From positions 96,001-160,000 of the IMG/VR virus record IMGVR_UViG_3300032220_000699: a stretch of 64,000 nt of DNA; one strand, 5' to 3'. Both the position numbers and the translations under genes were made by a program. Below, piece by piece: positions 600 through 27,470 of the stretch (position 1 is the first letter of the stretch; every line of letters starts with the position of its first letter). Below the pieces are notes generated by a model that was given only the letters and a program-made list of their open reading frames with translations, had not been told where the DNA came from and ran no database searches. This DNA is from a virus.

Positions 600-1120
600 T
601 TGATGAGCATGGGCCGAAGATTGAAGCTAGTTAGTCCTCGGGCATTCTATCCCGAATTAGATGCTCTCACATCCCACTTGTTTTAAAGTTCCTGGTGAGA
701 GACCAGATCCTCTTTGTCAAGCGTTTACGTCAATGTCCGTAGAACTAAAAAGCAAACTTGCCTGGTTACACATCCAGGTTGCTGGGATTAAGCAATGCGA
801 ACGGATCTACATTTCAATAGTCCGGTTGTTAATCGAATTACACTTATAGATGAGCGACATCTATAAGACACTTGTGAAAGGTCCCACTTTCATCAAGAAC
901 TGAGCATGTAAGAGCTAAAGATATGGCAGTGGAGAGATCATGTTTAGACGTGACCATGACCCCTAAACCCCACTATTCTGTCTCGATGTAGCAGACCGCG
1001 ATATCCACATCATCGTCGAGCCATATCCTTAGCAAACTAGTCGGGATTCGTCCTAGCCTTAGACGATATCTCTCCGAGATAGTGAGGAAGTTGAACCTCA
1101 CATAAATCCCTTACTCGTAG
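600..1120 (-). ncRNA. candidate large structured ncRNA, family unassigned
   Basis: About 520 nt with no credible ORF, many hairpins and two crossing long-range helices. Confidence 0.6.
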
Positions 1121-3517: not shown

Positions 3518-3703
3518 CTAGTCGTTTAAAGACTCTTCAATGAACTTCCTGAAGAAAACCTTCTCACTACCGCGTTTCTTTTTCCGCATGAACTTAACGC
3601 GCTTAGGTCCTTTAGGAGCAGGAGTGCAACAAGCACACTTCCAACCACCAGGTCCCAGCTCTTCGCTCTGAATCATACGAATAAAACGTTTTTCACTAAT
3701 CAT
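3518..3703 (-). CDS. small basic protein with CxCC
   Basis: 61 aa; GGAG RBS; terminator 3483-3516 follows. Confidence 0.6.
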   Translation of the reverse strand: MISEKRFIRMIQSEELGPGGWKCACCTPAPKGPKRVKFMRKKKRGSEKVFFRKFIEESLND

Positions 3704-17015: not shown

Positions 17016-17055
17016 TAGTATATATGTAACCAGTTATTTTCCAGTTACATAAATG

Positions 17056-27413: not shown

Positions 27414-27470
27414 AATGATACTAACTGTATTGCGACAATTAATATATATGTCATTAATTAGTATTCTATT

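Follow-up and report, generated by a model that had tools for sequence, protein, structure and literature searches.

The ORF-free stretch upstream of a phage two-piece tmRNA gene is a mosaic of separately inherited, structured modules

The large non-coding RNAs (ncRNAs) GOLLD and ROOL often adjoin the genes for tRNAs or for transfer-messenger RNA (tmRNA). The tRNA cluster of phage T4 contains the stable species 1 and 2 RNAs (rnaC/rnaD), which are co-transcribed and co-processed. These are structured ncRNAs of ~100–140 nt whose function is unknown, and which are presumably released by tRNA-processing enzymes. The tmRNA gene itself is found in a circularly permuted, two-piece form in Alpha- and Betaproteobacteria and in Cyanobacteria (PMC11915505). 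Transcripts of permuted tmRNA genes are cut by tRNA-processing enzymes, and among the intervening segments (IVS) that have been published there is one with an intact tRNA-Ala gene inside it and one that contains a repetitive element (PMC11915505). In the OM43 phage Melnitz, a glutamine riboswitch is located before a two-piece tmRNA (PMC9004378). Here, we analyse a stretch of about 500 nt without an open reading frame (ORF) that lies between ORF110, a conserved gene, and a permuted two-piece tmRNA gene in an uncultured phage. The stretch covers positions 600–1120 of the window, which is the whole 64,000-nt piece of DNA analysed and comprises bases 96001–160000 of a 189-kb IMG/VR record.

The initial annotation described the stretch as one pseudoknotted RNA, possibly a member of the GOLLD/ROOL type of large RNAs. 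We found the stretch to be real, structured and non-coding, but also to be a mosaic and not a GOLLD- or ROOL-like RNA. It consists of the modules A (1138–908), B1 (907–756) and B2 (753–626), which are inherited separately; this division follows from the separate presence of the parts in two relatives, L012 and L020. As the two relatives hold parts of the stretch separately and 1138–908 is present only in this phage, the assumption of a single unit of ~500 nt had to be given up. The minus strand carries all features relevant to the stretch, and their order from 5' to 3' is a promoter-like motif, a tRNA-Leu gene, ORF110, the stretch, the permuted two-piece tmRNA and a terminator. Minus-strand segments are written below from high to low coordinates.

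For the comparison of loci ORF110 served as anchor, and contigs encoding homologues of it were fetched. The closest relative is L012, with an ORF110 protein that is 94% identical. Only positions 907–622 of the window align to L012 (94% identity), and there the conserved block begins directly after the stop of the ORF. Both 1138–908 and the tmRNA are absent from L012, where a strong terminator comes after the conserved block, followed by a ribosome-binding site and a 101-aa gene. Module A appears as a 231-nt insertion exactly at the stop of ORF110, as the ORF of L012 ends with TGA at the A/B junction.

The second relative, L020, is a metagenome contig of 1119 nt in which the order is ORF, acceptor piece of the tmRNA, B2 homologue and coding piece. 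Its acceptor piece (L020:463–579) is 86% identical to window 620–505 and its coding piece (L020:729–950) is 88% identical to window 376–148. The segment between them is 82% identical to window 754–636 and has the exact position of the tmRNA IVS (L020:581–712): the CCA with which the acceptor piece ends is on its 5' side, and the 5' G of the coding piece follows it. In the window, B2 precedes the acceptor piece, and the tmRNA has an IVS of its own at 504–388. Copies of the same element are thus free-standing here and an IVS in the related phage. The breakpoints of the modules coincide near 621/622 in the three genomes. A chimeric assembly of L020 was considered and rejected: the flanking acceptor strands are complementary, the G3-U70 pair is kept, both ARAGORN and Rfam call an intact gene, and the tag is the same. 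Neither module A nor module B is repeated elsewhere in the 189-kb genome.

Judged from these alignments B2 is a portable cassette, being free-standing in the window, the end of a 3' untranslated region (3' UTR) before a terminator in L012, and nearly the whole IVS in L020. We interpret the stretch as a mosaic spacer made of independently inherited, self-folding modules within one operon of stable RNAs and mRNA, from which the modules would be cut out by tRNA-processing enzymes. We give this interpretation about an even chance of being correct.

Module B shows a low divergence between the window and L012. It differs from L012 at 17 of 287 positions (5.9%), whereas 23 of 111 four-fold degenerate sites (20.7%) differ in the two flanking genes. 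Module B has thus diverged 3.5 times more slowly than the four-fold synonymous sites of its two neighbouring genes (Fisher p = 5e-5), and B1 and B2 are each significant alone. All seven differences in paired columns keep the pair, one of them being fully compensatory and the others proceeding via G-U, and the G-U pairs that preserve the helices are valid only in the minus-strand RNA. The low divergence, in combination with pair-keeping changes that are valid on one strand only, argues for a constraint acting on B at the RNA level and on the strand of the tmRNA.

In B1, 7 of 152 nt differ from L012, and among the changes is a compensatory pair (CCUGG/CCAGG to CCCGG/CCGGG). The alignments show that segment 895–831 of B1 descends from the phage's own tRNA-Leu(UAA). 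Local alignment to this tRNA gave a z-score of 7.7, with none of 2000 shuffles as good and with the other tRNAs at background, and a second test gave 8.0 versus at most 3.7 in control sequences. The relic lacks the acceptor stem and the T stem, the bases of the latter being deleted. Its D-arm region has been remodelled into the hairpin 875–892 and its anticodon/variable region into the hairpin 843–867, which has a perfect 10-bp stem. It is not called by ARAGORN. Because the relic lies on the opposite side of ORF110 from the functional tRNA-Leu, it suggests that ORF110 arrived through an event that duplicated or displaced the tRNA.

A tRNA relic without acceptor and T stems would also fit the view that the stretch is neutral debris, left behind as cassettes were exchanged at a tRNA/HNH hot spot, so that the folds remain by descent and are now functionless. 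The site after ORF110 is indeed highly variable among relatives, some having HNH genes there and others a 164-aa gene, a tmRNA or different spacers, and module A occurs in one lineage only. Nevertheless, we consider neutral debris unlikely, given the slow divergence of B relative to the synonymous sites on both sides, the preservation of the pair at every changed paired column, and a B2 fold that has been kept through eight double changes and in two genomic contexts. These arguments cover B only; none of them covers module A.

The consensus structure of B2, obtained with RNAalifold from the three copies, comprises 42 pairs with 96% of the cells paired. Eight pairs are changed on both sides, and only 1 of 500 column shuffles was as good. 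Controls in which the partners were slid by 1–3 columns had 0–1 double-changed pairs. The minimum free energy (MFE) structure of the single sequence is identical to the consensus structure, with a z-score of −4.75 for the minus strand versus −3.4 for the plus strand. The loop of helix P2 (4 bp) has 8 nt and is invariant, P3 forms a long hairpin with interruptions, and P5 (5 bp) directly abuts the 3' strand of P1 (7 bp). The loops and junctions are invariant in the three copies, including blocks of 21 nt and 23 nt.

A covariance model of B2, R1, recovered only the three B2 copies when searched against the phage genome, all ORF110 loci and 64 host-type ssrA loci. No match was obtained with blastn against GenBank phages. 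Exact-word scans of IMG/VR gave zero hits for B1, for either of two B2 words, for the region of the tmRNA tag and for module A, and a scan of GTDB genomes with one B2 word also gave zero. Protein-anchored scans of IMG/VR revealed one distant relative of ORF110 and no lipoprotein relative. When R1 was run with filters off on 3 kb, the best non-self hit was the class II tRNA-Leu, matched over its full length and helix for helix (11.4 bits, E ~0.01), while tRNA-Ser obtained 2.9 bits and tRNA-Tyr gave no hit. B2 appears tRNA-shaped but it is not a tRNA. It represents a small new RNA motif with an unusual distribution, for which there is modest support from covariation.

The conservation of B, or of B2 alone, could also reflect a trans-acting small RNA, either a regulator derived from a 3' UTR or a decoy for host enzymes that target tRNAs, the neighbouring processing sites and terminator then serving its biogenesis only. 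In L012, B starts directly after the stop of the ORF and ends at a canonical terminator, which is the layout of 3'-UTR-derived small RNAs. The invariance of the loops and junctions of B2 and its apparent class II tRNA-like topology point in the same direction. On the other hand, the L020 element occupies a position that is normally discarded, and copies are few, none being found in IMG/VR, GenBank phages or GTDB by exact-word or BLAST searches. We regard such a trans-acting RNA as improbable.

The mosaic spacer interpretation draws further on the tmRNA gene that follows the stretch. This gene is a circularly permuted two-piece tmRNA according to ARAGORN (597–161) and to the models beta_tmRNA (639–191, 96 bits) and tmRNA_permuted (102 bits). 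As these calls are complete without the stretch, the initial view that the stretch is extra to the tmRNA was right. A degenerate pattern for the tmRNA core was found in 64 genome contigs, almost all from Rhodocyclaceae/Azonexaceae, with matches in the genera Dechloromonas, Azonexus, Accumulibacter, Propionivibrio and Rhodocyclus. The phage tmRNA belongs to the two-piece type of betaproteobacteria, and its resemblance to that of Rhodocyclaceae/Azonexaceae hints at the host group. The G+C content of the phage is probably much lower than in such hosts; within the window it is 44–50% over the first 1.5 kb versus ~28–38% in the next few kb. The host-type loci match the phage only in the tmRNA core, at 277–400 (~72–74%) and 501–540. 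An origin of the stretch from host flanking DNA was rejected, since the host loci have no match to the IVS, the leader, or modules A or B.

The IVS is 23–37 nt long (median 27) in 37 Rhodocyclaceae-type loci, versus 117 nt in the window and ~139 nt in L020. From this difference in length it follows that the spacers of these phage tmRNAs hold structured insertions of ~100 nt, which is module C in the window and B2 in L020. Between the two phages, the central block of T arm, acceptor and IVS differs, and its flanks are 86–88% identical. Acceptor positions 4–6 covary, being GGGGAUG/CAUCUCC here (381–387 with 508–514) versus GGGCCAG/CUGGUCC in L020, with G3-U70 kept.

A structured RNA in front of a tmRNA could be a cis-regulatory, riboswitch-like leader that controls read-through into the tmRNA or a downstream gene. 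The Melnitz glutamine riboswitch is a precedent for this (PMC9004378), and in L012 B2 is followed by a terminator and then by a ribosome-binding site and an ORF. Such a role is very unlikely, however, as no riboswitch family was matched up to E 10 and the window has no called terminator between B2 and the tmRNA. Moreover, the element of L020 is part of the IVS and follows the acceptor piece, a position from which it is unable to gate transcription of the gene.

Most structural statements of the initial annotation were borne out by the present analysis. The stretch contains no credible ORF, the longest being one of 62 aa on the plus strand. This ORF is disrupted in L012 by two 1-nt indels, and protein searches with it and the other spurious ORFs of the stretch gave no homologue. 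An origin as pseudogene was rejected as well, because a tblastx comparison of 560–1160 with all fetched loci and with the remaining genome had no hit below E 0.5. The hairpins at 843–867, 875–892, 761–778, 692–706 and 638–655 are present in the sequence and in the minimum-energy folds, and the 14-bp helix formed by 1033–1020 with 927–914 is present in both the MFE and the centroid structure. The stretch also folds better than dinucleotide shuffles, none of 100 shuffles reaching the native value, with a z-score of −5.2 for the minus strand and of −4.1 for the plus strand. The minus strand of the 521-nt stretch has a folding energy of −172 kcal/mol, compared to −141 ± 5.9 kcal/mol for its shuffles. 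Each sub-module also outfolds its own shuffles (z −2.8 to −5.3). The two parts of module A, A1 and A2, have a joint z-score of −4.8, and A2 alone folds better on the minus strand (z −5.25) than on the plus strand (−3.24). Searches of the genome, of GenBank phages, of IMG/VR and of a protein collection yielded no homologue of module A. Of the homologues with compensatory changes by which the initial annotation had proposed to judge the RNA, those of B exist, while module A has none.

The proposed pseudoknot was not confirmed. The 8-bp pairing of 1075–1068 with 938–931 is perfectly complementary as described, but five 8-bp complements are observed where 2.0 ± 1.8 are expected by chance at this length and composition, and 52 of 500 shuffles reach five. 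Since the helix is at chance level and competes with local hairpins that are favoured in both the MFE and the centroid structure, the pseudoknot is unsupported. Low-stringency Rfam scans were run on a segment of 1.7 kb and on one of 531 nt. For 615–1145 no family, riboswitches and tRNA included, was matched at gathering score or up to E 10. In particular there was no match up to E 10 to GOLLD, ROOL, group I or II introns or RNase P RNA, which the initial annotation had listed as candidates.

With this, the reading of the stretch as one large, ornate, pseudoknotted ncRNA of ~500 nt is largely refuted. Its overall folding z-score is high and its position beside tRNA and tmRNA genes is the expected one. 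Still, it lacks an Rfam match, its parts are separated in relatives, its predicted helices are confined within modules, and the sole helix proposed to cross between them is the chance-level one, so that we consider a GOLLD- or ROOL-like RNA extremely unlikely. An element acting at the DNA level, i.e. a folded single-strand recombination or homing site for cassette exchange, would agree with the borders coinciding at ~621/622 in three genomes and with the HNH genes that crowd the locus in relatives, but it is just as improbable, as the pair-keeping G-U changes correspond to C-A mismatches on the other strand, which are weak in DNA, and as B2 and A2 fold better on the minus strand.

Table 1. Features of the minus-strand locus around the stretch, in window coordinates
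Feature	Position	Strand	Remarks
Promoter-like motif ACATATATA upstream of tRNA-Leu	1625–1633	−	Putative start of the unit; overlapping sigma70-like match 1650–1621
Functional class II tRNA-Leu(UAA)	1512–1597	−	ARAGORN; Rfam tRNA 57.5 bits
ORF110, conserved 110-aa gene	1124–1456	−	16 homologues, 52–94% identity; alignment
Module A1, three hairpins in a 5-bp stem, cloverleaf-like	1034–1138	−	z −2.8; absent in L012
Module A2, three-way junction closed by a 14-bp stem (1033–1020/927–914)	914–1033	−	Absent in L012
Module B1, four hairpins	756–907	−	Conserved in L012:1207–1358
tRNA-Leu(UAA) relic within B1	831–895	−	Aligns to tRNA positions 8–70
Module B2, 128-nt five-helix junction	626–753	−	P1 7+3 bp, P2 4 bp, P3, P4, P5
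tmRNA leader with acceptor piece (T arm and 3' strand of the acceptor; CCA ends at 505)	505–620	−	
tmRNA IVS (module C), 117 nt, 10-bp closing stem, three inner hairpins	388–504	−	
tmRNA coding piece, tag AANDAQFAPQLKLAA	148–387	−	ARAGORN, Rfam
Intrinsic terminator, 10-bp stem and T run	99–123	−	Putative end of the unit

The mosaic spacer interpretation presumes that the modules are transcribed together with the genes on either side. The window contains 11 copies of the motif ACATATATA, where 0.96 are expected, and all 11 are on the minus strand; the sites include 1625–1633, 2652–2660, 17019–17027 and 27443–27451. It is a candidate for the core of a phage promoter. As one copy lies at 1633–1625 and neither another copy nor a terminator was called between this copy and the terminator at 123–99, we infer that the tRNA-Leu, ORF110, the stretch and the tmRNA form one transcription unit. 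Co-transcription with ssrA, put forward as a possibility in the initial annotation, is therefore very probable as far as motif and terminator predictions can tell.

ORF110 itself overlaps module A, in which its five terminal codons and stop are placed. The family is characterised by an invariant YRIHP motif and has no match in Pfam or PHROG. An AlphaFold model has a pLDDT of 69, and its matches in the PDB are weak and winged-helix-like (E >0.4). Homologues of ORF110 in phage contigs adjoin tRNA genes, and those in bacteria are located in mobile or defence islands, near SIR2, GmrSD, ParE or an integrase. The site 3' of ORF110 is hypervariable and can hold HNH genes, the 164-aa gene, a permuted tmRNA or long ORF-free stretches. 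This position is a hot spot for insertion of homing endonucleases, as seen from the gene for an HNH/His-Me endonuclease that occupies it in several relatives (L047–L054). In these, the endonuclease gene encodes 192 aa and begins ~60 nt past the ORF110 homologue (e.g. L047:1566–2144).

Other contigs with ORF110 homologues provide additional examples of what can be found at this site. In a third phage lineage (L005:4283–4732), the ORF110 homologue is followed by a well-folded spacer of 237 nt and a different permuted tmRNA (80 bits), of which the IVS was estimated by eye as ~29 nt. This 237-nt spacer has no sequence similarity to modules A or B. In L014:1177–1700, and partly in L015, L016, L021 and L022, two structured units of ~100 nt stand in tandem. 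Each of these units begins with UUAAGGGCACC and contains CGAAAAAUGCGGGAG and GGGAAUCUCGCAACCGAAAGG, and they are part of a region of ~1.6 kb without a called gene, 3' of the ORF110 homologue. No Rfam family matches them at gathering score. Furthermore, in L022, a phage-like metagenome contig with an ORF110 homologue, 89 nt at 3528–3616 match bacterial LSU rRNA (positions 2126–2215 of the model), barely over the gathering score at 51.6 bits.

How a mosaic spacer of this kind could work may be pictured as follows. The closing stem that each module has of its own would allow it to fold without disturbing the neighbouring tRNA-like domains. RNase P and the enzymes of 3'-end maturation (RNase E/Z plus exonucleases), in maturing tRNA-Leu and the tmRNA pieces, would at the same time excise the modules, and B2 would be released as a stable by-product RNA. 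The 7-bp and 5-bp helices of B2 may form a stack resembling the acceptor/T minihelix of a tRNA, and B2 itself could possibly be a signal for processing or punctuation.

Several observations weigh against this interpretation. For module A, the folding predictions suggest a structured element, and this support is thermodynamics alone, with no homologue. The covariation of B2 derives from three copies of which two are 94% alike, and is therefore essentially one divergent comparison. Part of the low divergence of B could be due to a recent recombination patch instead of selection. Attempts to recognise a tRNA in B2 failed, since Rfam gave no tRNA match, ARAGORN produced only junk calls at thresholds of 70–80% and was silent on ~3,500 variants with the P3 insert deleted, and there is no CCA. 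Nor do A1, A2, B2 and C have any similarity to each other or to any tRNA above controls. The closing stems of A2, B2 and C have no sequence in common, and none of them recurs elsewhere in the genome. Given the lack of both a common closing stem and mutual sequence similarity, the grouping of the modules as one family of cassettes is only conceptual.

It is tempting to speculate that B2, and perhaps A2 and the IVS of the window, belong to a class of portable, stem-closed, tRNA-shaped cassettes that enter dispensable positions (3' UTRs, leaders, IVS) of phage stable-RNA operons. Such cassettes would be released by tRNA-processing enzymes as functional, stable small RNAs, acting for instance as decoys for host defences that cleave or sense tRNAs. 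The chance that this extension holds is small in our judgement.

The analysis replaces the call of a giant ornate RNA by an anatomy of separately inherited folded modules, some of which are recycled tRNA genes. What is new is an element, B2, that appears to be under structural selection while moving among a 3' UTR, the leader of a tmRNA and the excised spacer of a two-piece tmRNA. If the modules are cassettes for processing or insulation, they would show how phages build long polycistronic precursors of stable RNAs; if the released RNAs act in trans, they would form a new pool of small phage RNAs. In annotation work, a high folding z-score near tRNA genes needs to be checked for tRNA relics and modular inheritance before a new RNA class is proposed.

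Compared to the systems described previously, the stretch resembles GOLLD and ROOL in being ORF-free, well folded and placed by tRNA-like genes in a phage, and differs in the lack of a model match, in far smaller independent units and in their modular inheritance. With Melnitz it shares a structured RNA that immediately precedes a phage two-piece tmRNA and belongs to its operon, but no match to the Rfam families glnA or Downstream-peptide was found here, and the positions in which B2 occurs are incompatible with a leader switch. The likeness to the T4 species 1 and 2 RNAs is by description only, and the present modules occur also inside a tmRNA gene. The likeness to class II tRNA-Leu is of two kinds: 895–831 of B1 is homologous in sequence, and the five predicted helices of B2 resemble those of a tRNA in their order, with a 7+5-bp minihelix that may be stacked. 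In contrast to a tRNA, B1 lacks the acceptor and T stems, and in B2 a hairpin of ~28 nt replaces the anticodon loop, the T-like loop has 8 nt, and both the spacer nucleotides before the D-like arm and the CCA are missing. The B2 copy of L020 is most similar to a tmRNA IVS, as it lies between the CCA end and the coding piece and is closed by its own stem. It departs from the known IVS in that B2 is free-standing in the window and in L012, and in that the phage IVS are 4–5 times longer than those of the Rhodocyclaceae type.

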